This document shows, one piece after another, positions 1 to 32,941 of a DNA stretch of 64,000 nucleotides. The position numbers were made by a program, and so were the translations under genes. Location: NCBI GenBank assembly GCA_037916975.1, contig JBAIWX010000007.1, positions 41 through 64,040 on the forward strand, read 5' to 3'. The notes under the pieces are model-generated. The model worked only from the letters and a program-made list of their open reading frames with translations. It did no database searches and was not told where the DNA came from. Positions within the stretch are counted from its first letter, which is position 1, and each line of letters begins with the position of its first letter. The stretch is from Gemmatimonadales bacterium. Its GTDB lineage: Bacteria; Gemmatimonadota; Gemmatimonadetes; Gemmatimonadales; GWC2-71-9.

Positions 1-725
1 TGCCCGGCGAAGTGCACGGCGCCGCGCAGCCCGAGGCGCGCCGCCTGCCGCTCGAGGGCCGTGCGCTCGGGGCCGTCGCCGGCGAGCACCCAGCGGAGCG
101 CAGGGTGGGAGCCGGCGAGCCGTGCCGCCGCCTCGAGGAGGTCGGCGTGGCCCTTCTCGGGGGTCAGGGCGGCGACGGTGACGGCGACCGGCGCCGTCCC
201 GGGCCAGCCCAGGCGGGCCCGGATGCCGCTCGGCACGGCGCGTGCTGTCTCGTCGACGGGGATCGCGGAGGGGATGACCGTGATCCGGTCCGCCGGGACA
301 CCACCCGCCTCGAGCGCCTGCCGGACCGCCTCGGAGATCGCGATCGCCCGGCTCACGCGGCGCCAGGGCCCGGGGCCGACCGGAAAGACGACGCGGCGCG
401 TCGCGACCAGCGGCACGTCGCGCGGCGCGGCCCAGGCGGCGAGGCGGAGGGCGTGCGCGTCGTGGGCGTGGAGGAGGCTCCCGGGGCGGCGGGACTCGGA
501 TAAGATTGCGATGAAGGCCCGCGGGTCGAGCCCCGCGCGCCACGCCACCTCGCGCACGGGGATCCCGTCCGCGCGGCAGCGTCGCGCGAGTGCCGAGCCG
601 CGGCCGGTGAGCACGAGCTGCGGCGGGCCGCCTTGGCGGGCGAGTTCGCGGGCGAGGAGCCAGACCTGCCGCTCGCCACCGCGCCACGCCCGGCCGCGCG
701 CGAGGTGCACGACCCGCGTCAGCAC
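1..725 (-). CDS. Glycosyltransferase family 4 (GT-B, group 1), N-terminal ~241 aa; 3' end runs off the window
   Basis: My own translation of the minus strand from GTG at 725 (GAGGGGA 4 nt upstream) gives VLTRVVHLARGRAWRGGERQVWLLARELARQGG...LLHAHDAHALRLA...VIPSAIPVDE...LTPEKGHADLLEAA...LAGDGPER with no stop down to base 1. It is absent from the ORF track because it is open at the window edge. Confidence 0.6.
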   Translation of the reverse strand, partial: MLTRVVHLARGRAWRGGERQVWLLARELARQGGPPQLVLTGRGSALARRCRADGIPVREVAWRAGLDPRAFIAILSESRRPGSLLHAHDAHALRLAAWAAPRDVPLVATRRVVFPVGPGPWRRVSRAIAISEAVRQALEAGGVPADRITVIPSAIPVDETARAVPSGIRARLGWPGTAPVAVTVAALTPEKGHADLLEAAARLAGSHPALRWVLAGDGPERTALERQAARLGLRGAVHFAG

Positions 726-820
726 GGCGTCCCCTCATGACCGGGCGGGCGCGGGCCGATCCTCGGGAAGAGGGGGGCGGGGAGGGGCGGCACCACCACC
801 GCCAGCACGGAGGGCCAGTC

Positions 821-1546
821 GTGATCCGACCCGACACGCGCGGCCACCTCGGGGCCCGCGACCTGCAGCTCGTGATCCTGCTCCTGAGCCGCGGCTCGGC
901 GCCGAAGCGCCGGGCGCTCGAGCGGCGCCTGCAGCAGGAGGGCCCCGACGCGCTCCTCGACGCGCCGGAGCTGCTCGAGCGGCTGCTCGCGGTCCGCACC
1001 CTGCTCGTCCCGTCGGATCACCTGCTCTTCTACGTGCTCGTCCGCCACGCGCTCCGGCGCTCGGGCGTGGACGACCGCGACCTCGCCGACTACGTCGCGG
1101 CGGTGCTGCTGGCCTTCGGGCAGCGGGACCGCGCGTGGCGGGTGGACTGGAACGACGATGCCACGCACGAGTACTTCGTGGACCTGCTCGGCGACCTCGA
1201 GCGCACCACCGGCGACCGCCGCTTCAAGGTGCTCGCGCACCTCGGCAACTACGCGCTCTGGCTCGCGGGGGTGTTCCCCGACTACATCGCCGCGCGGCGG
1301 CTCCGGCGCGGCGGCCCCGACGTGAGCTACTACGAGGCGCTGGGGCGGCGGGGCTTCGGCCTCGCGTCGGACCATGCGCTCGCGGACCAGTACGGGCTCG
1401 ACGGCATCTTCCGCTCGGCGTCCGAGCGCTTCCGCGCGCTCCGGACCGCGCTCAACGGGCTGAGCGACCAGGTCTTCTTCCCGCACCACTGCACGCCCGA
1501 CCGGATCGCGCGCGCGCTCGAGGCCGGCGGGGGCCACGAGGCCTAG
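821..1546 (+). CDS. Conserved hypothetical protein (no family recognised)
   Basis: Track ORF 737..1546. The C-terminal ~200 aa have normal composition (YFVDLLGDLERTTGDRRFKVLAHLGNYALWLAGVFPDYI). GTG 821 has GGAGGG 6 nt upstream and was chosen as start; ATG 737 is an alternative. Confidence 0.5.
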   Translation: MIRPDTRGHLGARDLQLVILLLSRGSAPKRRALERRLQQEGPDALLDAPELLERLLAVRTLLVPSDHLLFYVLVRHALRRSGVDDRDLADYVAAVLLAFGQRDRAWRVDWNDDATHEYFVDLLGDLERTTGDRRFKVLAHLGNYALWLAGVFPDYIAARRLRRGGPDVSYYEALGRRGFGLASDHALADQYGLDGIFRSASERFRALRTALNGLSDQVFFPHHCTPDRIARALEAGGGHEA

Positions 1547-2274
1547 GCGCGCGGGGCGGCGGCGGCCGCCTCGACGAGCGCCGAGAAGAGCCCGCGATCC
1601 GGCGCGGCCGGGTCGGCATGCATCTCCTCCGGGTGCCACTGCACGGCGAGGAGCCAGCCCGCGCCGTCCTCCCCCTCGAACGCCTCGATGACGCCGTCGT
1701 CGGCCCAGCCCGTGGGGCGGAGGCCGGCGGCGAGGTCGCGCACCGCCTGGTGGTGGAACGAGTTCACCGTGAGGGCGGTCGCGCCGACGGCGGCGGCCGC
1801 CGCACTCCCGGCCGCGAGGCGCACCGCGTGCGTGCGGGCGTCGCGCGCGGCGGGCGGGTCGTGGGCCACGTGCGTGGGGCGCTCGGTCGGGAGGTCCTGC
1901 CAGAGGGTGCCGCCCAGCGCCACGTTCACGAGCTGGAGCCCGCGGCAGATGCCGAGCACCGGCAGGCCCCGCTGGCGCGCGGCGGCGAAGAGGGCGAGCT
2001 CGAAGCGGTCGCGCAGCCGGTCCACGCGCCCGAGCCGCGGGGAGGGCACCGCGCCGTACCAGGCGGGATCGAGGTCCTCGCCGCCGGTGAGGAGGAGGCC
2101 GTCCATCCCCTCGAGGGCGAGGGCGGCGTGCTCGGCGCCGACGAGCGGCGAGAGGATGACGGGGAGTGCGCCGGCGGCGCGCACCGCGTGCACGTAGCCC
2201 GCGTTGACGCCGGTGCGCTCGGCGCCCTGCACCTCGCGCCGCAGGCCGCTCACCGCGATGCGCGGCGGCGTCAC
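1543..2274 (-). CDS. Class I glutamine amidotransferase / peptidase C26 (gamma-glutamyl-GABA hydrolase-like)
   Basis: 243 aa with GICRGLQ (nucleophile Cys), SFHHQ and AVQWHPE signatures. There is a 4-nt overlap with the upstream lipoprotein gene. Confidence 0.8.
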   Translation of the reverse strand: MTPPRIAVSGLRREVQGAERTGVNAGYVHAVRAAGALPVILSPLVGAEHAALALEGMDGLLLTGGEDLDPAWYGAVPSPRLGRVDRLRDRFELALFAAARQRGLPVLGICRGLQLVNVALGGTLWQDLPTERPTHVAHDPPAARDARTHAVRLAAGSAAAAAVGATALTVNSFHHQAVRDLAAGLRPTGWADDGVIEAFEGEDGAGWLLAVQWHPEEMHADPAAPDRGLFSALVEAAAAAPRA

Positions 2275-2762
2275 GGCTGGCGGAGCGAGTCGGGGAAGAG
2301 CGGGCAGGCGGGGTCCTGCACGGCGCCCATCTCGAGCTCGATGCCGAGGAGCGGGAGGGTGAGGCGGCCGGCATTCACCACGCCGAGCTTCGGCGCGGCC
2401 TCGATGGGATCGGTCTCGAAGAGCATCACGCCCTGCACCGCGCCGCCCTTCTGGACGACGAGGACCCCGAACTTCGGGGCGAGGGTGGCGGGCAGCGCGC
2501 CCTCGACGCCGATCACGAGGCCCGAATCGGCCCGGCCGACGAGCGCCGGGAACGCCGGGCCGGCCGCGACGCGCGCCACGGTGCGCTCGGGGAGCCGCGC
2601 CGGGGGCTGCGAGAGCGTCTGCTGCGGGATGGTGAACTGCTCGAGGAGCCGCGCCGCGCCGGCGATGGCGACGATGCCGCAGGTGGGGTTCGAGGTACGG
2701 GCCGGCGCGCCGCGGCCGCAGGCGGCGAGGGCGAGGAGCGTCGGGAGGACGAGGCGTCGCAT
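2271..2762 (-). CDS. Putative lipoprotein, unknown function
   Basis: 163 aa. Signal peptide with lipobox (LLALAAC). Normal composition, no family recognised. Confidence 0.6.
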   Translation of the reverse strand: MRRLVLPTLLALAACGRGAPARTSNPTCGIVAIAGAARLLEQFTIPQQTLSQPPARLPERTVARVAAGPAFPALVGRADSGLVIGVEGALPATLAPKFGVLVVQKGGAVQGVMLFETDPIEAAPKLGVVNAGRLTLPLLGIELEMGAVQDPACPLFPDSLRQP

Positions 2763-2833
2763 GGTCGGGTCGCTCGGCGCGTGAAGGTCGGGAGCGGGTC
2801 GCTCGGCGGAAAGCTAACGCCCGGCGGGCCGCG

Positions 2834-3493
2834 TCAGAGCGAGGCGACCAGCAGGACGGCGATGATGCGGTTCTTCACCGGGCTGCCCGCGGTGAGCCCG
2901 CGCATCCCCTGCGCGATGCGTCCCTCGAGCCCGAGCGCGAAGCCGCTGCGGTAGAGCGTGACCCCGCCGCCGGCGACCCAGGTGAACTCGGCGCGGCGGA
3001 CCGGCAGGCCCGCGTCGGCGCATTCCACGGCGCTCACGCTGGTGCTCGACTCGAGGCGGAGGCTGCAGCCGGCACGGAGGCCGACGCCCGCGCCCCCGAA
3101 GAGGACGGGCCGCAGCCCCCGCGCACGGCGCGGCGGGGCGAGGCGCACGAGCACGGGGAGCTCGAGGTAGCCGAGCTCGAGCGCGGCGCGCGCGACGGTG
3201 TCGGCCGCGGTGGTGAAGGGGGTCTGGCCGCCCTTGATCACGAAGTTGAGCTCCGGCTGCACCGCGACCCACGGCGCCAGGCGCAGCCGGTACCAGGCGC
3301 CCACGAAGGCGCTCTGCCGGCCCTCGAGGGCGACCTCGCCGGGCCCCGGGGCGGGCAACCCCACGAAGCTCGCGCGCGAGTAGCCGAGCTGGAAGCCGAG
3401 GGCGCGCGGCACGCGCTGCTGCGCGGGCGCGGGGGCCGGCGCGGCGAGGAGCGCGGCGCCGAGCGCGAGGAGGGGGCGGAGGGCACGGGGCAT
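2834..3493 (-). CDS. Small outer-membrane beta-barrel protein (porin/OmpA-like beta-barrel family)
   Basis: Internal ATG (residue 128) of the 346-aa track ORF. MPRALRPLLALGAALLAAPAPAPAQQ signal peptide is followed by alternating hydrophobic beta-strand patterns (AWYRLRLAPWVAVQPELNFV, FTWVAGGGVTLY). The upstream part of the track ORF is Arg/Pro junk. Confidence 0.55.
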   Translation of the reverse strand: MPRALRPLLALGAALLAAPAPAPAQQRVPRALGFQLGYSRASFVGLPAPGPGEVALEGRQSAFVGAWYRLRLAPWVAVQPELNFVIKGGQTPFTTAADTVARAALELGYLELPVLVRLAPPRRARGLRPVLFGGAGVGLRAGCSLRLESSTSVSAVECADAGLPVRRAEFTWVAGGGVTLYRSGFALGLEGRIAQGMRGLTAGSPVKNRIIAVLLVASL

Positions 3494-3604
3494 CGCCCGC
3501 AAGATAGCGGCGCCGCGGCGTGCGCCGGGGCGCCGGCTCGCTTGACCCGGTGCCGCCGCGGGGCGTACTCTTCGCGGTTCCCTCAGCCACCCGCGGCCCT
3601 CCGC

Positions 3605-4162
3605 ATGTTCGAGAGCCTCAAGGCGCGCCTCGACCGCCTCTTCGCCGAGCACACCCCGCCCGCCGATGCCCGCGCCCGCGGCGCCCTGCTGCACGAGGCC
3701 GTGGTCGAGGCGAAGGTCGGGCTCGGCCGGCTGCGCGACGGGGTGGCGGCGACGGAGCGGGAGCTCGCGCAGGAGCGCGGGCACCTGGCGGACGCCGAGC
3801 GGCGCGGGCGGCTCGCCGCGGAGATCGGCGACGAGGAGACGGTGACCGTCGCCCAGCGCTTCGCGGAGCGGCACCGCGAGCGCGCCGGGGTGCTCGACCG
3901 GAAGCTGGCGGCGCAGCGGGAGGAACTGGCGCTCGCCGAGCGCGAGGTGGCGGAGATGACGGCGCAGCTCCGCGCGCGGCCCGCGGCCCAGGCCGACCGG
4001 TCGCTCGAGGCGGCGTGGCGCGACCTCGAGGCGGCGGGCGGGGCCCGCCCGGGCACGGACGCGGCCGACGACCTGCTCCGCGCCGAGGCCGACGCGGCGG
4101 CCCGGCAGGCGGCGGTCGAGGCCCAGCTCGCCGCGCTCAAGAAGAAGCTCGGCCGGGACTGA
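3605..4162 (+). CDS. Coiled-coil protein, PspA/IM30-like
   Basis: Start at ATG 3605 (MFESLKARLDRLF). Heptad-rich Ala/Glu/Arg sequence ending AVEAQLAALKKKL, reminiscent of the PspA family C-terminus. Family call is tentative. Confidence 0.45.
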   Translation: MFESLKARLDRLFAEHTPPADARARGALLHEAVVEAKVGLGRLRDGVAATERELAQERGHLADAERRGRLAAEIGDEETVTVAQRFAERHRERAGVLDRKLAAQREELALAEREVAEMTAQLRARPAAQADRSLEAAWRDLEAAGGARPGTDAADDLLRAEADAAARQAAVEAQLAALKKKLGRD

Positions 4163-4193
4163 CCGGCCCCGTCACGGACCCGAACCCACGACC

Positions 4194-5306
4194 ATGCCCC
4201 AGCGACGACTCCGCCGCCCCGTGCGGCGCCTCCCCCACGCGGCCCTCGCCCTCGCCGCCGCGGCGTTCGTTCCCCCCGTCGTTGCCCAGCAGCAGCCGAT
4301 CGCTCCCCCCGCGCACTTCGAGAAGCTCGCCCACACCTACAGCATCGTCGCGTGGGACTCGGTGACCGGCGACCTCGGCGTCGCGGTGCAGTCCAAGTTC
4401 CCGAACGTGGGCGGCATCGTCCCGTGGGCGAAGGCGGGCGTGGGCGCGGTCGCGACACAGAGCCTCGGGAACACGGCCTACGGCGAGCGCGGGCTCGAGC
4501 TCCTGGGCCTCGGCGCGTCGGCGGAGGAGGCGCTCCGCATCGTGATGCGCACCGACACGATGCTCGCCGACCGCCAGGTGGGGATCGTGGACGCGCGCGG
4601 GAACGCGGCGAGCTTCACCGGGACGCGCACCTTCGACTGGGCCGGCGGGCGGGTCGGCTGCGCGCCGGGCGCGGCGCCGGCGGGCGACTCGGTGCGGGTC
4701 GAGCGCGCGGCCGGCGGGTGCCAGGTGGCGGGCGGGAAGGGGGCGGTGATCGCGGGGCGCGGCTTCGCGGCGCAGGCGAACATCATGGTCTCCGACCGGA
4801 CCGTGCGGAACATGGCCGACGCCTACCAGCGCGCGACCGGCGACCTCGCGAGCCGCCTGATGGCGGCGCTCGAGGCGGGGCAGGCGGGCGGCGGGGACAA
4901 GCGCGGCATGCAGTCGGCGGCGCTCCTCGTCGTGCGGCGGGGCGGGGGCTACCTCGGCGCCAACGACCGCTTCATCGACATCCGCGTCTACGACGCGCCG
5001 CAGCCGATCGCGGAGCTCCAGCGGCTCCTCGCGCTCCACCGGCTCCACTTCTTCCCGAGCGAGCCGGCGGACCTCGTCCCGATCACGCCGGCGATCGTGC
5101 GGCAGCTCGAGCCGATCCTGCTCCGGGAGCCGGCGGGCCAGGCGCAGCACTGGCTCGCCGCGCCGCAGGGGAGCGCCACCCCGGCCTTCCTCGCGGCGCT
5201 CCGCGACTTCATGTACTGGGAGAACTACGACGTCCGCGTCCGCATGGACGGGCAGATCGACCGCGTCGTGCTGCAGGACATCCTCCGGAAGCGCGCCGGG
5301 CAGTGA
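4194..5306 (+). CDS. Secreted DUF1028 (Ntn-hydrolase fold) protein with C-terminal extra domain
   Basis: 370 aa. Signal peptide ...VVAQQQP. HTYSIVAWD...GVAVQSKF motif typical of DUF1028. The C-terminal ~90 aa (ITPAIVRQLEPILL...FMYWENY) look like a peptidoglycan-binding-like repeat. Confidence 0.7.
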   Translation: MPQRRLRRPVRRLPHAALALAAAAFVPPVVAQQQPIAPPAHFEKLAHTYSIVAWDSVTGDLGVAVQSKFPNVGGIVPWAKAGVGAVATQSLGNTAYGERGLELLGLGASAEEALRIVMRTDTMLADRQVGIVDARGNAASFTGTRTFDWAGGRVGCAPGAAPAGDSVRVERAAGGCQVAGGKGAVIAGRGFAAQANIMVSDRTVRNMADAYQRATGDLASRLMAALEAGQAGGGDKRGMQSAALLVVRRGGGYLGANDRFIDIRVYDAPQPIAELQRLLALHRLHFFPSEPADLVPITPAIVRQLEPILLREPAGQAQHWLAAPQGSATPAFLAALRDFMYWENYDVRVRMDGQIDRVVLQDILRKRAGQ

Positions 5307-5342
5307 GCGCCGCTTCGTGACCCCACCGACGGGAGACCACCG

Positions 5343-6869
5343 GTGACCTCGACCCCCCCGACCGCCCAGGACACGGCCTTCTTCGGCCACCCGCGCGGCC
5401 TGTCCACGCTCTTCTTCACCGAGATGTGGGAGCGCTTCGCCTACTACGGCATGCGCGCCATCCTCATCCTGTTCATGACCGCGTCGGTGGCGAACGGCGG
5501 CCTCGGCTTCGACGTCGCGAAGGCGGGCGCGGTGTACGGGACGTACGTCGCGCTGGTGTACATGCTCACGCTGCCGGGGGGCTGGATCGCCGACCGGATC
5601 CTCGGGCTCCGGCGCTCGGTGCTGTACGGCGGCATCCTCATCATGCTCGGCCAGGGGTGCCTCGCGGTGCCGGGGACGGCCTTCTTCTACCCGGGCCTCC
5701 TCCTGATGGTGCTCGGCGTGGGCCTCCTCAAGCCGAACGTGAGCGTCATCGTCGGCGAGCTGTACGGGCGCGAGGACGTGCGGCGCGACGCGGGCTTCTC
5801 GATCTTCTACATGGGGATCAACCTCGGCGCCTTCATCTCGCCGCTCATCGTGGGCTGGCTCGCGCAGAGCGACGGCTTCAAGGCGATGCTGCAGGGCTGG
5901 GGCATCACGCCCGAGACGTCGTGGCACTGGGGCTTCGGCGTGGGCGCGCTCGGCATGTTCCTCGGGCTGGTGCAGTACGTGCTGGGGTGGAAGCACCTGG
6001 GGGAGGCCGGGATGCACCCGAGCGTGGCCCCCGCCTCGGCGGAGGGCGCGGCGGCCCGGCGGCAGCTCTGGCTCGGGGCGGGGGCGCTCCTCGCCGTCGT
6101 CGCCGCCGTCGCGGCGCTCGTGGTGCAGGGGGTGCTGAGCGTGCAGACGGTGACGAACGCGTTCAGCGGGCTCTACTTCCTGATCGTCGTCGCGTTCTTC
6201 GTCTGGCTCTTCTTCTTCGGCACGTGGACGCGGGACGAGTACAAGCGGCTCGTCGTGATCCTCGTCCTCTTCGTGGGCGCCGCGATCTTCTGGTCGGCGT
6301 TCGAGCAGGCCGCGTCCACGCTCAACCTCTTCGCCAACGAGAAGACGCGGAACAGCGTCTTCGGGTGGACCTTCCCGGCGAGCTGGTTCCAGTCGGTGAA
6401 CGCGGTGATGATCATCGCGCTCGCGCCGGTGTTCGCGTGGATCTGGCTCGCCCTCGGCAAGCGCGACCCGTCGAGCCCGGCCAAGTTCGCCGTGGGGCTC
6501 CTCTTCGTGGGGCTCGGCTTCGCGGTGATGGTGGGGGCGGCGCAGGCGGCGGCGGGGGGCGAGAAGGTGAGCCCGGGGTGGCTCACGCTCACCTACCTCC
6601 TGCACACGATCGGCGAGCTCTGCCTCTCGCCGGTGGGCCTCAGCTCGATGACGAAGCTCGCGCCCGACCGGGTGAAGGGGCTGATGATGGGCGTCTGGTT
6701 CCTCGCCGCGTCCATGGGGAACCTGATCGCGGGGCGGGTGGTGGGCTTCCTCGAGAAGTTCAGCCCCGCGCAGATCTTCACGGCGGTGACGGCGTTCGCG
6801 ATCGTGGCGAGCGTCGTGATGTTCGCGCTCGTGGCGCCGATCCGCCGGATGCTCGAGCGCGAGGGCTAG
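5343..6869 (+). CDS. Proton-dependent oligopeptide transporter (POT/PTR2 family di-/tripeptide permease)
   Basis: 508 aa. FFGHPRGLSTLFFTEMWERFAYYGMRAIL and FYMGINLGAFISP PTR2 signatures, about 14 TM segments. Confidence 0.9.
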   Translation: MTSTPPTAQDTAFFGHPRGLSTLFFTEMWERFAYYGMRAILILFMTASVANGGLGFDVAKAGAVYGTYVALVYMLTLPGGWIADRILGLRRSVLYGGILIMLGQGCLAVPGTAFFYPGLLLMVLGVGLLKPNVSVIVGELYGREDVRRDAGFSIFYMGINLGAFISPLIVGWLAQSDGFKAMLQGWGITPETSWHWGFGVGALGMFLGLVQYVLGWKHLGEAGMHPSVAPASAEGAAARRQLWLGAGALLAVVAAVAALVVQGVLSVQTVTNAFSGLYFLIVVAFFVWLFFFGTWTRDEYKRLVVILVLFVGAAIFWSAFEQAASTLNLFANEKTRNSVFGWTFPASWFQSVNAVMIIALAPVFAWIWLALGKRDPSSPAKFAVGLLFVGLGFAVMVGAAQAAAGGEKVSPGWLTLTYLLHTIGELCLSPVGLSSMTKLAPDRVKGLMMGVWFLAASMGNLIAGRVVGFLEKFSPAQIFTAVTAFAIVASVVMFALVAPIRRMLEREG

Positions 6870-6878
6870 GCCCGTCCC

Positions 6879-7415
6879 TCAGTCGTGGCGGTCGGCGGCG
6901 TAGAGGAGCACGTCGCCGACCTCCTCGTCCCACAGGGCGCCGACCCGGCGCATCCCGATCTTCTCCGCCACGCGCACCGACTTCTCGTTCCAGGGCGGGA
7001 TCGTGGCCGCGACGCGCCGGACGCCCGGCTGGCGGAGGGCCCAGTCGAGGAGCCCCCCCGCCGCCTCGGTGGCGAAGCCGTGGCCCTCGTGGCCGGGATA
7101 GGTCGCGTAGCCCATGATGACGGCGCCCTCGGCGTCCGGGGGACCGCCGAGCCCGACCGAACCCACCGCCTGCCCGGTGTCCCGCCGCACCACGACCCAA
7201 CTCCACCACCCGTCCTGCGACGGGTCGCGCCGCAGGCGGTCGCGGAGGTCCGGCAGGACGTCCTCCATGAGCGGCGGCGGGGCGAGCGGCTGCGGGAAGG
7301 CGGCGCTCGTGAGTGCCGAGAGCCGGAGCGCGTCGCCCGCGAGGAGCGCGTCGATCGCCTCGGCGGAGAACGGCGTGAGGGTGAGGCGGTCGGTGCGGAT
7401 CGGGCCGGCGGGCAT
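6879..7415 (-). CDS. GNAT family N-acetyltransferase (RimJ/RimL-like)
   Basis: C-terminal 178 aa of the 571-aa track ORF starting MPAGPIRTDRLTLTPF. GYATYPGHEGHGFATEAAGGLLDWA acetyl-CoA-binding-type motif. Confidence 0.8.
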   Translation of the reverse strand: MPAGPIRTDRLTLTPFSAEAIDALLAGDALRLSALTSAAFPQPLAPPPLMEDVLPDLRDRLRRDPSQDGWWSWVVVRRDTGQAVGSVGLGGPPDAEGAVIMGYATYPGHEGHGFATEAAGGLLDWALRQPGVRRVAATIPPWNEKSVRVAEKIGMRRVGALWDEEVGDVLLYAADRHD

Positions 7416-26611: not shown

Positions 26612-28039
26612 GTGGAAATGCTCCTCACCACCCTCGTGGTGGTCGCGATCACGGCGCTCTCGGTGTGGCGGCACCTGCGCCAGCACGCGCCGGCGCGCCC
26701 GGCGGGCCAGGCCTGCGCGCGCTGCCGGGCAGCCGTGCCCGAGGGGGCGCGCACCTGCCCGAAGTGCGGGGTGCCCCTGCAGGTGTTCGAGGTGGTGGCG
26801 GCGCCCGCCGCGACGGCCGCACCCGCGGCGGCGGCGGGACAGCGGCACGCAGTGGTGCGGGCGGACGTCTGCGCGGGCTGCGGGACCTGCGTCGCGGCCT
26901 GCCCGGAGGACGGCGCGATCCGCCTCGAGAAGAAGCTGGCCGTCGTGGACCTCGCGCACTGCGTGGGTCACGGGGACTGCGCGGCGGCCTGCCCGGTCAA
27001 CGCGATCGTGGTCGGCGCGGGCGACGGCGTGCAGCGCGTCGAGGTGCCGGAGGTGGACCGGAGCTTCCGCGCGAACGTGCCGGGGATCTACGTCGTGGGG
27101 GAGCTGGGCGGGCGCGGCCTCATCAAGAACGCGGTCAACGAGGGGAAGGTCGCCGTCGAGGCGATCGCCCAGGAGCTGCCGCCGGGGCAGCTGCGGCTCG
27201 ACGGCTACCTGCACGCGCTCGACGTCGTGATCGTGGGCTCGGGCCCGGCGGGGCTGAGCGCCGGGCTCGAGGCGCACCGCGTGGGGCTCAAGTACGTGGT
27301 GCTCGAGCAGGGCTCGCTCGCCGACACGATCCGCCGCTACCCGCGCCACAAGCTCCTCTTCGCCGAGCCGCTCACGGTCCCGCTCTACGGAGACCTGTGG
27401 ATCTCGGATGCGTCGAAGGAGAACCTCCTCGCGGTCTGGGAGACGATCGTCCGGAAGACCGGGCTCACCGTGCTCACGGAGCACAAGGTCACGAACATCA
27501 TCCGCCGGGACGACATCCTCGAGGTGGTCGTGCCCGGGCGGAAGTTCCTCACGCGGCGGGTTGTCCTCGCCCTCGGCCGCCGCGGCACGCCCCGCAAGCT
27601 CGGCGTCCCCGGCGAGGAGCTGGGCAAGGTCGTCTACGACGTCGCCGAGATGGAGGACTTCAAGGGACGGCGGGTGCTCGTCGTGGGCGGCGGGGACAGC
27701 GCGCTCGAGTCGGCGATCGGGCTCGCGAGCCAGCCGGGGACGACGGTCACGCTCAGCTACCGCGGCACCTCCTTCGACAAGGCGAAGGAGCGGAACCGGG
27801 CCAAGCTCGACGCCGCCGTGGCCGCGGGCCGGGTGCGCCTCATGCTGCAGAGCCAGGTGCGGGAGATCCGCGACGACGTCGTCGTGCTGGACGTGGAGGG
27901 CGCCTCGACGATCCTCCCCAACGACGACGTGATCGTGCGGATCGGCGGCGAGGCCCCGTTCGCCTTCCTCGAGAAGATCGGCGTGCGGATCATCACCAAG
28001 GAGATCCGCCTGCAGCCGGACGTGCAGCAGCGTGCCTGA
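26612..28039 (+). CDS. Membrane-anchored Zn-ribbon / 2x FeS ferredoxin / FAD-NAD(P) pyridine-nucleotide-disulfide-type oxidoreductase fusion
   Basis: 475 aa. N-terminal TM ([16 protein letters not shown]). CARC-x11-[16 protein letters not shown] and [26 protein letters not shown] (FAD) and [14 protein letters not shown] (NAD(P)) dinucleotide folds. Confidence 0.8.
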
Positions 28040-30083
28040 CCTGCGCCGGCTCCTCCGCGCCGCGCTCCCCGCGCTCGCCGCCCTGGCCCTCGGCCGGGCG
28101 GCACCGGCGCACGCGCAGATCTCGCCCGGGCCGCTGGCGCAGCCGCATGCGCAGCTCGAGGGCACGCTCAAGTGCACCCAGTGCCACGCGAGCAGGAAGG
28201 AGGAGATGCCGAGGGTCTGCCTCGCCTGCCACCGGGAGATCGGCTGGCTCGTGGAGCGGAACCGCGGCCTCCACGCGCGCGAGCGCGCGACGCCCTGCCA
28301 GAGCTGCCACCCGGACCACGCGGGGCGCGACTTCGCGCTCGTGAGCTGGAAGGAGGGGGCGCCCGAGCGCTTCGACCACCAGCGCGCCGGCTTCCGGCTC
28401 GAGCTGAGCCACGCGAAGGCGAAGTGCGAGGCGTGCCACGCGGCCAAGTACCGCGTGTCGCCCGCGGCGGCGCTCGCCCCGCAGAAGGGCGCGCACTGGA
28501 CCGGCCTCGAGACGGGGTGCACCGCCTGCCACGAGGACGTCCACCAGGGCGCGCTGGACAAGGACTGCACCAAGTGCCACGACGCCGGGAAGTGGGTGCT
28601 CGCGCCCGGCTTCGACCACAAGACGACCCGCTACCCGCTCACCGGCGCGCACGACACCGTCTCGTGCGACGGCTGCCACCTCGCGAAGCGGCTGCCGCTC
28701 CGGCTCGCCGCGACGGGGAAGCCGATCCCGGTCTACAAGCCGCTCCAGTTCGGCGAGTGCTCGAGCTGCCACGCCGACCCGCACAAGGGGAAGTTCGGGG
28801 CCGAATGCTCGTCGTGCCACGTGACGGCGAGCTTCCGGAAGATCGACAAGGACAACTTCGACCACGAGAAGACGCGCTACCCGCTCCGCGGGAAGCACGC
28901 GGCGGTCGCGTGCGCCAAGTGCCACGCGCCGGGCGACCCGGCGGGGAAGAAGCCCCCATTCGCGCGCTGCGCGGACTGCCACCGCGACGACCCGCACGCC
29001 GGCACCGCGAAGCTCGCGGGCGCGGTGGCGGACTGCGCGAGCTGCCACAAGGTCGAGGGGTGGACCCCCGCGACGTACACGGTGGCCGACCACGACCGGG
29101 CGCCGTACCGCCTCGAGGGGAGGCACCGCGAGGTGCGGTGCGCCGAGTGCCACCAGAAGCGGCCGCCGGGCGTGCCGGCGGCGGTCCTCGGCAGTGCGGG
29201 CGTCCAGCTCCGGCCCGCGTCCAAGGCGTGCCGTGACTGCCACGCCGACGACCACGGGGGCCAGCTCGCCCAGCGGCCCGACAAGGGCGCGTGCGAGGCC
29301 TGCCACAGGGTCGCGGGCTGGGACCAGACCACCTACGGCATCGCCGAGCACGCGAAGCTCCGGCTTCCCCTCGACGGCAAGCACGCGACGATCCGCTGCG
29401 GCGCGTGCCATGCGGCCGACCGCAAGGGCCTGCCGGGGTTCGCCAACGTCGCGGCCCTCGGCAAGGCGCGCGTGCTCATGAAGCTGGCGAGCGCCGAGTG
29501 CGCCTCGTGCCACGTGGACGTGCACGACGGTCGGTTCGCCCAGGGCGGCGAGCGCGCCAAGCCGGAGGGGTGTGCGGCGTGCCACGACGCGCGCGCCTTC
29601 CGGCCCTCCACCGTCGCCGCGGCGCAGCACGAGCGGTACGCCTTCCGGCTCGAGGGCGCCCACCGGGCGACGCCCTGCGTCGCCTGCCACGCCGACCTCA
29701 AGACCACGGCCGGCGGCAGCTTCCTGCTCGCGGCGGCGCGCAAGCCGGCGACGCCGCTCGCGCTCGCCGTGGCGAAGCGGGACTGCGCGGACTGCCACGC
29801 GAGCGAGAGCCCGCACGGCGACCAGTTCGCGGGCCGGAAGGACCGGGGGGCCTGCGAGGCCTGCCACTCGGTGGCGGCGTTCGCGCCCGCCGACCGGTTC
29901 GACCACGACCGTGACGCGTCGTTCTCCCTCGCGGGGGCCCATGCCAGGGTGCCCTGCGCCAAGTGCCACGTGCCCGACGCCCAGGCCGCCGCGCGCGGCG
30001 GGGTGCGGGTGCGCTACCGGCCGCTCTCGGGGAAGTGCGAGAGCTGCCACGACGACGCCACCGCGCGTCGCCCGACCCGCTAG
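28032..30083 (+). CDS. Multiheme c-type cytochrome, 23 CxxCH motifs, signal peptide
   Basis: 683 aa. I counted 23 CxxCH, arranged as seven three-heme modules plus one two-heme module. Signal peptide ...AAPAHAQ with no lipobox. 8-nt overlap with the upstream gene. Confidence 0.9.
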
Positions 30084-30092
30084 GAGGCCGCC

Positions 30093-31370
30093 ATGCGCCG
30101 ATCCCGGTTCGTCGCGCTCGCCGCGCTGCTCCCCGCCCTCGTGGGTGGGCGGCTCGCGGCGCAGGACACGGGGCAGGACCCCGGGCAGAACCCGCACGGC
30201 CCGCTCAAGGTCGAGTGCAGCACCTGCCACGTCGCCACCAGCTGGACGGTCGTGCGGCCGGCGAAGCAGTTCGCGCACGCGCCGGCCACCTTCCCGCTCC
30301 AGGGGGCCCACGCGAGCACCTCATGCCGCGCCTGCCACCGGGCGCTCGACTTCACCGGCACGCCGACGGCCTGCGTGAGCTGCCACAAGGACGTGCACCA
30401 GGGCGAGCTCGGCGCCGACTGCGCCCGCTGCCACTCGGCGCGGAGCTTCGTGGACCGCGCGACGATGCTGCGCCAGCACCAGACGGCGCGCTTCGTCCTC
30501 ACGGGCTCGCACGCCGCGGTGGACTGCGAGCAGTGCCACACGGCAAAGGGGCAGGGACGGCTCGCGTTCACGAACACCCCGTCGCGCTGCGAGGACTGCC
30601 ACCTCGACCGCTTCGCCGCGACGCGGAACCCCGACCACACTGCCGGCGGCTTCTCGCGCGACTGCAACCAGTGCCACGCCACGGCGCTCTGGACCCCCGC
30701 GCGGTTCAACCACGCGGCGGGCCGCTTCCCGCTCACGGGGGCGCACCGCGCGGTGGCCTGCGACCAGTGCCACGCCAACAACCGCTTCGCCGGCACGCCG
30801 ACGGCCTGCGTGGGCTGCCACCTGACGGACTGGCAGGGGACCACGAACCCGAGCCACCAGACGCTCAACTTCCCGCAGGAGTGCACCCAGTGCCACTCCA
30901 CCGTGTCGTGGAGCGGCGCGACCTTCGACCACACGGTGACCGGGTTCACGCTCACCGGCCAGCACAAGTCGGTGGCGTGCACCGACTGCCACAAGAACGG
31001 CGTCTTCGCCGGCACCCCGACCACCTGCGTCGGGTGCCACCAGCAGGACTACGCCGGCACGACGAACCCGAACCACCAGGCGGCGGGTTTCCCGACCGAC
31101 TGCGCGTCGTGCCACACCACGGCGGGATGGGCGGGCGCGACCTTCAACCACGACGGGACCTTCTTCCCCATCTACTCCGGGGCGCACCGCGGCCAGTGGA
31201 CCGACTGCGCCACGTGCCACACGAGCCCCACGAACTTCGCGACGTTCACGTGCCTCACGTGCCACGTGCACGACAAGCCCACGATGGACGCCAAGCACCA
31301 GGGGCGCGCCGGGTACACCTACGACAGCCAGGCGTGCTACCGCTGCCATCCGCAGGGGAGGGCCGGCTGA
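30093..31370 (+). CDS. Multiheme c-type cytochrome, 16 CxxCH motifs, signal peptide
   Basis: 425 aa. 16 CxxCH counted, with the same F-[DN]-H...G-x-H...CxxCH module as the preceding gene. Signal peptide ...GGRLAAQD with no lipobox. Confidence 0.9.
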   Translation: MRRSRFVALAALLPALVGGRLAAQDTGQDPGQNPHGPLKVECSTCHVATSWTVVRPAKQFAHAPATFPLQGAHASTSCRACHRALDFTGTPTACVSCHKDVHQGELGADCARCHSARSFVDRATMLRQHQTARFVLTGSHAAVDCEQCHTAKGQGRLAFTNTPSRCEDCHLDRFAATRNPDHTAGGFSRDCNQCHATALWTPARFNHAAGRFPLTGAHRAVACDQCHANNRFAGTPTACVGCHLTDWQGTTNPSHQTLNFPQECTQCHSTVSWSGATFDHTVTGFTLTGQHKSVACTDCHKNGVFAGTPTTCVGCHQQDYAGTTNPNHQAAGFPTDCASCHTTAGWAGATFNHDGTFFPIYSGAHRGQWTDCATCHTSPTNFATFTCLTCHVHDKPTMDAKHQGRAGYTYDSQACYRCHPQGRAG

Positions 31371-32941
31371 TGCGGACCACGACGCTCCTCCTCGGCGCGC
31401 TGGCGCTCGCGACGCCGCTCGCGGCCCAGGACTCGGCCGCGACGCGCAGCGCGCGGATCACCTACCTCACCAGCACCACCGCGTACCTCGACGCAGGGCG
31501 GGAGGACGGCCTCGCGACCGGTGCGCTCCTCGACGTGCGGCGGCAGGGGGCGAGCGTGGGCGCGCTGCGGGTGACGGACCTCTCGTCCCACCGGGCGGCC
31601 GGCGAGATCGTCCGTGCCGACCAGCCGCTCGCCGTCGGCGACTCGGCCTGGTACGTCCCGGTCGCCGCGCCCGCCGAGGCGCAGGTGGCGCAGGCGGGCG
31701 ACGCGAGCGCGGCCCGGCGCCGCGGCCGCCACCCCGACGCGCTCCGGGGCCGGATCGGCGTGCGCTACCTGTACAGCTCGGCGGCGGGGGGCGCGCGGGA
31801 CCTCTCGCAGCCCGCGCTCGACGTGCGGCTCGACGGCACGAACCTCGGCGGCACGCCGCTCGGGCTCGCCGTGGACGTGCGCGCCCGCTGGACCAACACC
31901 GGCGGCACCGGCGCCGTGACCACCAACGACGGGGTGGCGCGCGTCTACCAGGCCGCGCTGCTCGTCGAGTCGGCGAAGAGCCCGGTCCGCGCCGTCGTGG
32001 GCCGCCAGCTGTCGCCGACCATCGCCACGGTGAGCTTCCTCGACGGCGCGCTCGTCGAGGCGCGCGGGAAGAGCTGGGCCGTGGGCGCGATCGGCGGGAC
32101 GGAGCCGGACCCGGTCACCTTCGCCTGGTCGAAGGACATCACCGACGTCGGCGGGTACGTGCAGCTGCGGAGCCCGGTCGGCGCGGCGAAGCGCTGGAGC
32201 GCGACGCTCGGGGCCGTCGGCTCGTACACCGAGAGCCGCGCCAACCGGGAGTTCGCCTACCTGCAGGGGAGCTACCTCGACCGGAACGTCTCGGCCTTCC
32301 TGGCGCAGGAGCTGGACTACTACCGCCCCTGGAAGGTGGCCCTCGGCGAGAAGAGCAGCCTCTCGCCCACGAGCACCTTCGCGAGCCTGCGCGTCCGCGT
32401 GAGCGACGGCGTGAGCCTCTCCGCCGGCTACGACAACCGGCGCAACGTGCGGCTCTTCCGCGACGCGGTGAACCCCGAGACGGTCTTCGACGATTCGTTC
32501 CGGCAGGGCGTGTGGGGCGGGGCCTTCTTCTCCTTCGCACGGCACCTGCACCTCGGGCTCGATGCGCGCACGAGCGACGGCGGCACCGCCGGCCACGCCG
32601 ACCTCTACTCGGTGACCATGGGGGCGACGAACCTCGGGCGGGCCGGCCTCTCGATCCGGGGCCGCGGGACGCGCTACCAGAACGCGGTGCAGGACGGCTG
32701 GCTCGGCTCGCTCTCGGTGGGCGTCTCGCCCGGCTCGCGGCTCTCCCTCGAGGTGAACGGCGGGCTGCGGAGCGAGCACAACGCCGCGGCCGACCCCGCG
32801 ACGCAGCAGGTGACGTGGGTGGGCGGCTACGCCGACTTCTCGCTGCTGCGGTCGCTCTACCTGATGGTCTCGGCCACCCACGAGTCGGGCGCCCTCGAGG
32901 GGAGCGACCAGGGCTACCTGAGCCTCACCTGGCGCTTCTGA
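31370..32941 (+). CDS. Outer-membrane beta-barrel protein with N-terminal soluble domain (putative porin partner of the cytochromes)
   Basis: 523 aa from ATG 31370 (TGATG overlap with the cytochrome stop) inside the 992-aa track ORF. Signal peptide ...TPLAAQD, many amphipathic strands, aromatic C-terminus ...YLSLTWRF. Confidence 0.7.
   Translation: MRTTTLLLGALALATPLAAQDSAATRSARITYLTSTTAYLDAGREDGLATGALLDVRRQGASVGALRVTDLSSHRAAGEIVRADQPLAVGDSAWYVPVAAPAEAQVAQAGDASAARRRGRHPDALRGRIGVRYLYSSAAGGARDLSQPALDVRLDGTNLGGTPLGLAVDVRARWTNTGGTGAVTTNDGVARVYQAALLVESAKSPVRAVVGRQLSPTIATVSFLDGALVEARGKSWAVGAIGGTEPDPVTFAWSKDITDVGGYVQLRSPVGAAKRWSATLGAVGSYTESRANREFAYLQGSYLDRNVSAFLAQELDYYRPWKVALGEKSSLSPTSTFASLRVRVSDGVSLSAGYDNRRNVRLFRDAVNPETVFDDSFRQGVWGGAFFSFARHLHLGLDARTSDGGTAGHADLYSVTMGATNLGRAGLSIRGRGTRYQNAVQDGWLGSLSVGVSPGSRLSLEVNGGLRSEHNAAADPATQQVTWVGGYADFSLLRSLYLMVSATHESGALEGSDQGYLSLTWRF

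Follow-up and report, generated by a model that had tools for sequence, protein, structure and literature searches.

Two adjacent genes in a 64,000-nucleotide (nt) stretch of DNA from a Gemmatimonadales bacterium (assembly GCA_037916975.1, contig JBAIWX010000007.1, positions 41 to 64,040; the whole stretch is called the window here) encode multiheme c-type cytochromes of 683 and 425 amino acids (aa). Both are chains of one small three-heme unit, and both lie in a five-gene cluster with genes for a membrane protein, an iron-sulfur (FeS) flavoprotein and a predicted outer-membrane protein. Taken as a whole, the evidence makes it probable, if well short of certain, that both cytochromes arose by tandem duplication of this unit and that, as class III-related triheme-unit proteins with bis-His hemes, they are the two wires of an electron conduit of the kind described as PCC3 (a porin-cytochrome cluster), rather than stand-alone periplasmic proteins.

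The original prediction, which viewed both cytochromes as polymers of a three-heme module with 23 and 16 hemes, was correct in these counts: the CxxCH motif occurs 23 times in the 683-aa protein and 16 times in the 425-aa protein, with no CxxxCH, CxxxxCH or CxxCK variants in either, and all of the example strings that it quoted were found in the proteins. When the chains were cut after every third CxxCH and the pieces aligned, they proved to share a unit of 68-94 aa containing three CxxCH and three conserved extra His residues. The unit begins with W or F, followed by F-[DN]-H and by [FY]-P-L-x-G-x-H, the latter 4-5 residues ahead of the first CxxCH; there follow a loop of variable length, a second CxxCH extended by x-D-x-H-x-G, and the third CxxCH. 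In the 683-aa protein the canonical pattern is [WF]...F-D-H-x8-9-G-x-H-x4-CxxCH ... CxxCH-x-D-x-H-x-G ... CxxCH.

The similarity between units survived masking of the heme motifs. With the CxxCH letters masked, local alignments between units were compared with 200 shuffles; the mean unit-unit score in the 683-aa protein was 44.6, against a shuffle mean of 22.8 (z 23.5), while in the 425-aa protein it was 63.7 (z 31.9). Units of the one protein also aligned with units of the other (mean score 38.6, z 27.2). A periodicity beyond the motifs themselves was therefore evident both from these masked units (z 23-32) and from the ungapped autocorrelation of the 425-aa protein, which peaked at a lag of 73 aa (0.59, shuffle maximum -0.16). 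The autocorrelation was uninformative for the 683-aa protein, because its unit lengths vary.

The arrangement proposed for the 425-aa protein, i.e., about 5x3+1 hemes, also stood: a single heme following an N-P-H-G motif precedes five three-heme units (1 + 5x3). That proposed for the 683-aa protein (7x3+2) had to be revised to 3 atypical + 6x3 + 2, since hemes 1-3 bear no resemblance to the repeated unit (z 0.7); the last unit is without its middle heme. It is in the atypical N-terminal unit (residues 30-93) that the best stretches of the Pfam families Cytochrom_c3_2 and Cytochrom_CIII fall. A tandem repeat of roughly 250-270 nt had been expected at the DNA level. The repeat exists, with a core of 54-70 nt recurring at 60-76% identity in both cytochrome genes, but the period is different, being 228-282 nt in the 683-aa gene and 201-234 nt in the 425-aa gene. 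Tandem Repeats Finder did not call a long-period array, and the two core units of the 425-aa gene are 68% identical in nucleotide and 55% identical in amino acid sequence; judged from its sequence, the DNA-level repeat is an old one.

The extra His residues had been thought to fit bis-His ligation, and their conservation bears this out, with one conserved non-motif His per heme in both cytochromes (23/23 and 16/16). In the 683-aa protein exactly 23 non-motif His residues are invariant among 52 orthologues, including the distal His residues H625 and H637 of the truncated unit. For the 425-aa protein, 19 orthologues share 15 invariant residues of this kind, and a sixteenth is retained in at least 90% of them. 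Met is nearly absent, with two residues in the 683-aa protein (counting the GTG start) and three in the 425-aa protein. As three motifs are accompanied by three conserved extra His residues in each unit, every heme is expected to be bis-His, and all 39 hemes should be so ligated. Units 2-4 of the 425-aa protein have F, W or Y in place of the His of CxxCH-x-D-x-H. Their third His is found 6-7 residues further on, inside an N-P-x-H motif, and is a candidate ligand replacing that of D-x-H.

Whether the units are of the c7 type, as originally described, depends on the level considered. At the superfamily level the description holds, with Pfam PF14522 giving 94.2 bits over nine stretches of the 683-aa protein and 74.1 bits over five stretches of the 425-aa protein (cut-off 24.8). 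Single units scored 17-27.7 bits, aligned to model positions 11/13-66 of 67; PF14522 was the best family for six of ten units, and PF02085 (class III) was better for the other four. The narrower comparison with the domains of the Geobacter GSU1996 protein failed, TIGR04257 (cut-off 40 bits) giving 17.8 bits for the 683-aa protein and 16.1 bits for the 425-aa protein. GSU1996 domains each contain one His-Met heme (PMC10138318), unlike the hemes here, which are all expected to be bis-His; with so few Met residues and a conserved distal His for every heme, a His-Met heme of the GSU1996 kind is impossible.

Aligned by hhalign with PpcA (the query sequence of which was confirmed to be identical to PDB 1OS6), the unit profile gave a weak match (probability 62%, E 7.5e-5, 52 columns) in which the three CxxCH were aligned. 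Like the unit, PpcA packs three CxxCH into about 70 aa and has bis-His hemes throughout, and its F-P-H-K-A-H aligns with the [FY]-P-L-x-G-x-H ahead of the first heme motif. The distal His residues are placed differently: the first lies 10-11 residues upstream of the second (H-x10-H), rather than 3 as in PpcA (H-x2-H), and the third follows the second motif by 3-4 (or 11-12) residues, whereas His47 of PpcA precedes that motif. The His residues of PpcA are assigned to individual hemes here as in its structure. Searched against the PDB, the unit profile matched GSU1996 (3OV0) at 8.3e-8 and the 16-heme HmcA at 2e-9 to 2.5e-8, among 149 multiheme entries of which no single family stood out. These matches were spread over many unrelated multiheme families with per-stretch scores that were alike, so they are motif-driven. 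A single-sequence search of both cytochromes against PDB sequences returned nothing at E <=0.01.

Structure prediction did not alter this picture. An AlphaFold2 model of the whole 683-aa protein (predicted local distance difference test score, pLDDT, 71.4; predicted template modeling score, pTM, 0.43) gave a best Foldseek E value of 1.3 (MtrA) and VIA-align Z scores of at most 2.4, due mainly to the signal-peptide helix. With a heme-free model of two units (pLDDT 83.5), Foldseek found nothing at E <=0.001, and re-examining its 15 chains also yielded nothing. Heme-free models of heme proteins have almost no secondary structure, so blank fold searches of this kind are to be expected; resting on such models, they prove nothing, being evidence neither for a new fold nor either way on the c7 relationship. 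Our reading of the sequences is that the unit is a diverged class III (c3/c7) triheme unit, lying outside the GSU1996 domain family.

The genomic setting of the two cytochromes (Table 1) was established from gene calls based on codon-position G+C and on reading of the open frames, in a window with a G+C content of 72-79%. The 3' end of the flavoprotein gene overlaps the start of the 23-heme gene by 8 nt, and the stop of the 16-heme gene overlaps the start of the outer-membrane protein gene by 1 nt, while the remaining gaps within the cluster are only 7-9 nt. With overlaps or gaps of no more than 10 nt throughout, the five genes look like a single, translationally coupled operon. Cytochrome c assembly proteins are encoded in the source genome. 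The public gene call (P0003, 625 aa, 100% identical to the 683-aa protein) begins 58 residues further downstream, and that start would drop both the signal peptide and the first heme motif (window 28032-28205); by comparison with the orthologues, the GTG start at 28032 appears to fit better.

Table 1. Genes of the cluster, subdivisions of the two cytochromes, and the plasmid-borne counterpart of the cluster (positions are those of the window unless a locus is named)
Feature	Position	Strand	Remarks
Membrane protein, putative inner-membrane, 311 aa	25669..26604	+	Likely di-heme b type
FeS-flavoprotein, membrane-anchored, 475 aa	26612..28039	+	
23-heme c-type cytochrome, 683 aa	28032..30083	+	Sec signal peptide, without lipobox Cys
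Atypical N-terminal three-heme unit, 683-aa protein	28119..28310	+	Residues 30-93, hemes 1-3
Six canonical three-heme units, 683-aa protein	28311..29867	+	Residues 94-612, hemes 4-21, 76-94 aa each
Truncated C-terminal unit, 683-aa protein	29868..30050	+	Residues 613-673, hemes 22-23
16-heme c-type cytochrome, 425 aa	30093..31370	+	Sec signal peptide, without lipobox
Constant N-terminal part, 16-heme protein	30162..30677	+	Heme 1, unit 1 (68 aa), unit 2 (81 aa)
Two 73-aa core units, 16-heme protein	30678..31115	+	Heme spacings 32,16,25; copy-number-variable part, n = 2
Constant C-terminal three-heme unit, 16-heme protein	31116..31349	+	Heme spacings 35,15,28
Predicted outer-membrane protein, 523 aa	31370..32941	+	Signal peptide, C-terminal W-R-F
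Five-gene cluster on ~100-kb plasmid pEMTOL02	Locus L111, 11911-20607		Directly after ccsA
Gene order on pEMTOL02			ccsA, membrane protein, FeS protein, 23-heme cytochrome, 40-heme cytochrome, 538-aa hypothetical protein

The 311-aa membrane protein has five hydrophobic segments, with W-x3-H-x13-H on segments 3 and 5 (residues 108-126 and 280-298) and S-G-x-x-G on segment 4 (residues 148-152), and these motifs were retained in all 120 homologues among the matches listed. It was assigned to no family in either Pfam or NCBIfam; a Pfam match below threshold (E 0.097) pointed toward ferric reductase/NADPH oxidase-type domains; the same analogy was drawn by He et al. for the PCC3-type membrane protein (PMC5566968). 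The 475-aa flavoprotein combines an N-terminal hydrophobic helix and zinc-ribbon-like CxxC pairs with a 2x[4Fe-4S] ferredoxin domain and an FAD/NAD(P)-binding oxidoreductase domain. It matched the Pfam families Pyr_redox_3 (6.8e-41), Pyr_redox_2, Fer4_10 and Fer4_7, and NCBIfam matches of the YpdA/TrxR-like type were below their cut-offs.

Relatives of the 523-aa protein in other loci are 32-47% identical (tblastn), and most of them share an R-F ending. Like the 311-aa protein, it was placed only in unnamed clusters of the Atlas; the nearest named clusters are outer-membrane beta-barrels (0.86-0.87), which serves as a lead only. As judged from sequence, it is likely to be the beta-barrel partner of the conduit. 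When complexes were predicted, the pair formed by this protein and the 16-heme cytochrome scored 0.47 against 0.00 for the best of three controls, i.e., weak support, with at least 50% of the contacts agreeing between runs and a partner pLDDT of at least 73. Of 80 solved complexes, 58 passed the mark used for these scores, as did 2 of 110 mismatched pairs; at 0.60 or below it was passed by just 7 of the solved complexes and by both mismatches. The first ~100 residues of the 523-aa protein (window 31370-31700) are unlike barrel strands, and carry invariant Y39, G43, G47 and G51 together with a nearly invariant Cys column; this part could be a periplasmic docking domain.

The association of these genes is widespread. 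Species-representative genomes were scanned with an alignment of the membrane protein, relatives of which were found in at least 563 species genomes, and the best 80 loci were compared. These 80 genomes belong to Gemmatimonadota, Eisenbacteria and Krumholzibacteriota, and most of the complete loci among them retain the whole five-gene cluster. Both cytochromes and the outer-membrane protein are present in nearly all of the loci that reach far enough, and almost every locus has a linked flavoprotein gene, whether in-line or divergent. Five congeners and one genome of the same family have the membrane protein gene directly before both cytochrome genes, the outer-membrane gene next wherever the contig extends that far, and the flavoprotein gene divergent just upstream.

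These two layouts differ in the flavoproteins that they contain. Where the order is membrane protein-flavoprotein-cytochrome 1, as in the window, the flavoprotein is 56-66% identical to that of the window, compared with 40-45% where its gene is divergent and upstream. In the congeners of the window the flavoprotein gene is divergent, and the first cytochrome shares only 52-56% identity with that of the window, for which the best database matches are at up to 70%; members of the genus may have exchanged the cluster. Across wider distances, its carriers comprise Gemmatimonadota, Eisenbacteria, Krumholzibacteriota and Bacteroidota, to which the names of the cytochrome matches add Acidobacteriota and Zixibacteria, while ten distant relatives of the membrane protein supplied one name only, Ignavibacteriales.

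A search of plasmid proteins returned a single record, i.e., pEMTOL02 (NC_018749.1) of Emticicia oligotrophica DSM 17448, a member of the Bacteroidota, in which the cluster occupies plasmid positions 81299-89995. The membrane protein encoded there (281 aa) carries the same motifs as that of the window, the NAD(P)-binding FeS protein is 41% identical to its counterpart, the second cytochrome has 40 hemes, and the 538-aa hypothetical protein is 25% identical to the outer-membrane protein of the window. RefSeq gives the products of this cluster no more specific names than "cytochrome c3 family protein" and hypothetical protein. From this plasmid-borne copy, recognized by its sequence, it follows that the system is mobile and that it is present in a culturable aerobe.

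The two cytochromes differ in how their lengths vary between species. The first was nearly constant, with 23 motifs in 116 of 120 homologues among the matches listed; among the related loci, it has 23 hemes in 51 and 20 in 14. The 20-heme version occurred in loci labeled Eisenbacteria/Krumholzibacteriota and in a few with another or no phylum label. A change from 23 to 20 amounts to one three-heme unit fewer, so even this "fixed" first wire appears to have evolved by whole units. By contrast, intact genes for the second cytochrome in the related loci encode from 12 to 58 hemes, with 40 of 62 counts being of the form 3n+1. The heme spacings follow the formula [36,16,16,35,21,25] + n x (32,16,25) + [35,15,28], corresponding to 10+3n hemes, in which n is 2 in the window, 1 to 16 in related loci and 10 on the Emticicia plasmid. 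Relatives with anything from 13 to 58 hemes share the N-terminal spacings (36,16,16,35,21,25).

Within the genus of the window alone, the second cytochrome has 16, 24 or 33 hemes. In the 33-heme proteins of two congeners (L012 6505-8100 and L014 6378-7973), the core units are 70-95% identical (mean 85%), compared with 55% for the pair in the window, which suggests that in these congeners the cassette either was amplified recently or is evolving in concert. Given an identity of about 85% among the core units of the long versions, changes in cassette copy number would seem to be recent and ongoing. Two congeners (L011 10156-12210 and L014 8676-10808) have a cytochrome gene split into two open frames, with 16+8 hemes in the case of the second cytochrome and 17+6 in that of the first, reflecting either frameshifts or assembly errors in repetitive DNA.

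The closest known system, by gene content and motifs, is the PCC3 porin-cytochrome cluster, which is itself uncharacterized. As defined by He et al. (2017; PMC5566968), PCC3 consists of a porin, an "extracellular" cytochrome of variable heme number, a "periplasmic" cytochrome (median 21 hemes) and a membrane protein. The membrane protein of PCC3 and PCC4 has about 300 aa and five helices, with SGxxG on helix 4 and WX3HX13H on helices 3 and 5, and was read by those authors as a di-heme b, quinone-active cytochrome b (PMC5566968); the 311-aa protein matches this signature exactly. In the supplementary figure of the same paper, the periplasmic cytochromes have 24 hemes in 8 repeats or 21 in 7, i.e., three per repeat (PMC5566968). 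Those of Gallionellaceae have 21, 24 or 27 hemes, with 10-35 in the outer cytochrome (PMC5566968, PMC10734462), whereas the first cytochrome here has 23 or 20. The outer cytochrome of PCC3 varies in heme number and is rich in T/S/A/G (PMC5566968); the second cytochrome here is similarly variable, as well as poor in charge and rich in T/S/N/Q/G (14% charged residues and 36% S/T/N/Q/G in the mature 16-heme chain). There are 26-30 residues per heme in both systems.

The likeness, which extends to gene order, is one of description and motifs, and there are clear differences. The FeS-flavoprotein gene linked to the present cluster is not part of the PCC3 description, and the carriers named above belong to phyla outside the Proteobacteria, whereas PCC3 has been reported only in Alpha-, Beta- and Gammaproteobacteria (PMC5566968, PMC10734462). 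With MtrCAB and OmaB-OmbB-OmcB, the system proposed here would share the principle of a periplasmic multiheme protein, an outer-membrane barrel and a surface multiheme protein. It differs from them in its heme numbers (23 and 16-58, against 8-12), in having no lipoprotein cytochrome, and in its inner-membrane entry module. Two other candidates were set aside: the MtrA/DmsE decaheme family (TIGR03508), which scored 46.9 and 25.2 bits against a cut-off of 192.2, and the clusters of peat Acidobacteriota/Verrucomicrobiota in a 2026 preprint, which have cytochromes of 8-13 hemes and are a different system. A 2026 cave metagenome paper describes porin-cytochrome groups with very long cytochrome genes, porins of about 20 strands and a nearby "ferredoxin-NADP reductase", and these may be the same system.

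To the modular build, the tally of His residues, the gene linkage and the length series, all of which were observed, we add by inference where the proteins are located, with which partners they act and in which direction electrons flow. The cytoplasmic FeS-flavoprotein would be reduced by NAD(P)H or a donor of that kind, and its FeS clusters would pass the electrons to the two b-hemes of the five-helix membrane protein, as in ferric reductase/NADPH oxidase domains. The 23-heme cytochrome, of fixed length, would then carry them across the periplasm, and the variable cytochrome (10+3n hemes, 16 in this case) would dock with the outer-membrane barrel and reach an acceptor outside. The differences in length between species are easier to reconcile with the second cytochrome being a surface wire than with its spanning the periplasm. 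Encoded beside an outer-membrane protein, a first wire of constant length and a second of variable length would suit "periplasm-spanning" and "surface" roles, respectively.

A bolder form of this proposal is a quinone-independent, NADPH-oxidase-like export line, in which electrons would pass in turn through NAD(P)H, FAD, 2x[4Fe-4S], two b-hemes, the 23-heme periplasmic wire and the surface wire. The last of these would owe its length to the number of cassettes (73-76 aa each, 10+3n hemes, n = 1-16), and the line would move between phyla on plasmids and constitute a widespread route of extracellular electron transfer. We put this forward tentatively, as a possibility that is rather less likely to be true than false.

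Several observations weigh against the conduit as proposed. The relationship to c7 is marginal at the level of the individual unit, only 3 of the 10 single units exceeding the PF14522 cut-off on their own, and the two-unit model matched no chain at Z >=2 among 48,161 PDB representatives. The 523-aa protein belongs to no Pfam or NCBIfam family, its complex score was a weak pass obtained with shallow alignments of 19 rows, and neither cytochrome carries a lipobox, i.e., there is no lipoprotein anchor. None of the named top matches is proteobacterial. For PCC3 itself, no function has been demonstrated experimentally, and in Sideroxydans ES-1 it was down-regulated on Fe(II). Finally, the outward direction of electron flow is a guess.

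It is on direction that the most serious alternative differs. The same cluster might run inward, electrons from Fe(II), Mn(II), a mineral or a cathode reaching the membrane protein and perhaps going on to the quinone pool instead of the flavoprotein. Multiheme bis-His chains are reversible, as established for Mtr/Mto-type conduits, and the sequence contains nothing that settles which way electrons run. The PCC3 cluster was originally described from iron oxidizers and modeled as an uptake path, with the membrane protein acting on quinones (PMC5566968). However, nearly all of the loci have a linked gene for an NAD(P)-binding FeS-flavoprotein, which is a better fit to a cytoplasmic donor, because reduction of NAD(P)+ from Fe(II) is uphill. 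The down-regulation of PCC3 on Fe(II) in Sideroxydans ES-1 also counts against uptake. We therefore regard inward flow as unlikely, with perhaps one chance in a few of being correct.

Less likely again is the view that both cytochromes are free periplasmic nanowires or capacitors of the GSU1996 type, with no crossing of the outer membrane. GSU1996, GSU0592 and GSU2210 of Geobacter sulfurreducens, like the proteins here, have tandem three-heme domains (about 75-80 aa) on one chain, and GSU1996, which is described as a periplasmic protein, is itself viewed as a heme wire. The Pfam c7 matches and the Sec signal peptides without a lipobox suit this interpretation, and a capacitor role has been raised in the literature for PCC3 cytochromes too. 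Yet TIGR04257 remained below its cut-off and a His-Met heme is impossible, and the cytochromes here, unlike GSU1996, are encoded in an operon with a predicted outer-membrane protein and a membrane redox module, a tight linkage found in many phyla. A second cytochrome ranging from 13 to 58 hemes, while the first stays fixed, would also be hard to fit into a periplasm of fixed width. Least tenable of all, and in our judgment very improbable, is that these are catalytic multiheme enzymes or their partners (NrfA/HAO/octaheme-reductase) or members of the MtrA/DmsE family: NrfA, NrfB and MtrA were among the motif-driven PDB matches of the unit profile, but the sub-threshold scores for DmsE (46.9 bits), hydrazine dehydrogenase (20.8) and QrcA (31.3) are far under the cut-offs of 192, 900 and 180 bits, there is no CxxCK or other variant motif and no Pfam match to NrfA/HAO-type families, and a conserved sixth-ligand His for every heme leaves no open catalytic site to be expected, so that the NrfA/HAO-type reading was rejected.

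Some further observations concern the genomes in which the cluster was found. A metagenome-assembled genome (MAG) labeled Hyphomicrobiales (L045/G031) groups in a phylum of 206 species genomes, 74 of which have the membrane protein; its label is probably wrong, and it offers no route into the Pseudomonadota. The label of an "Actinomycetes" MAG with cluster genes (L060) also looks misassigned. Six loci (L037, L062, L071, L073, L094 and L098, positions ~200-7000) have a second multiheme set a few kilobases upstream of the cluster, with 8-9, 18 and 16 CxxCH; the window has no such set.

Published work already covers tandem triheme cytochromes, as well as PCC3-type clusters whose cytochromes are built of repeats and vary in length. 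In the searchable literature we did not find the present lineage in Gemmatimonadota and allied phyla, its constant FeS-flavoprotein partner, the strict 10+3n series, an all-bis-His unit with a shifted third ligand, or a plasmid copy in a culturable bacterium. Gemmatimonadota and their neighbors are abundant in soils and sediments, and to our knowledge they are not known for extracellular electron transfer. The presence of membrane-protein relatives in at least 563 genomes suggests, from sequence, a common electron route to or from the outside; if the export line were real, extracellular electron transfer by this means would be widespread among soil and water bacteria that are not known for it, examples being Gemmatimonadota, Eisenbacteria, Bacteroidota and Acidobacteriota. 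The 10+3n series would represent a natural, modular way of setting the length of a protein wire from a 73-aa cassette, and such cassette wires would be useful for bioelectronics and for tests of how conduction scales with heme number. The plasmid copy in the cultured aerobe Emticicia oligotrophica DSM 17448 makes the function directly testable, and the cluster also bears on the still unproven function of proteobacterial PCC3.

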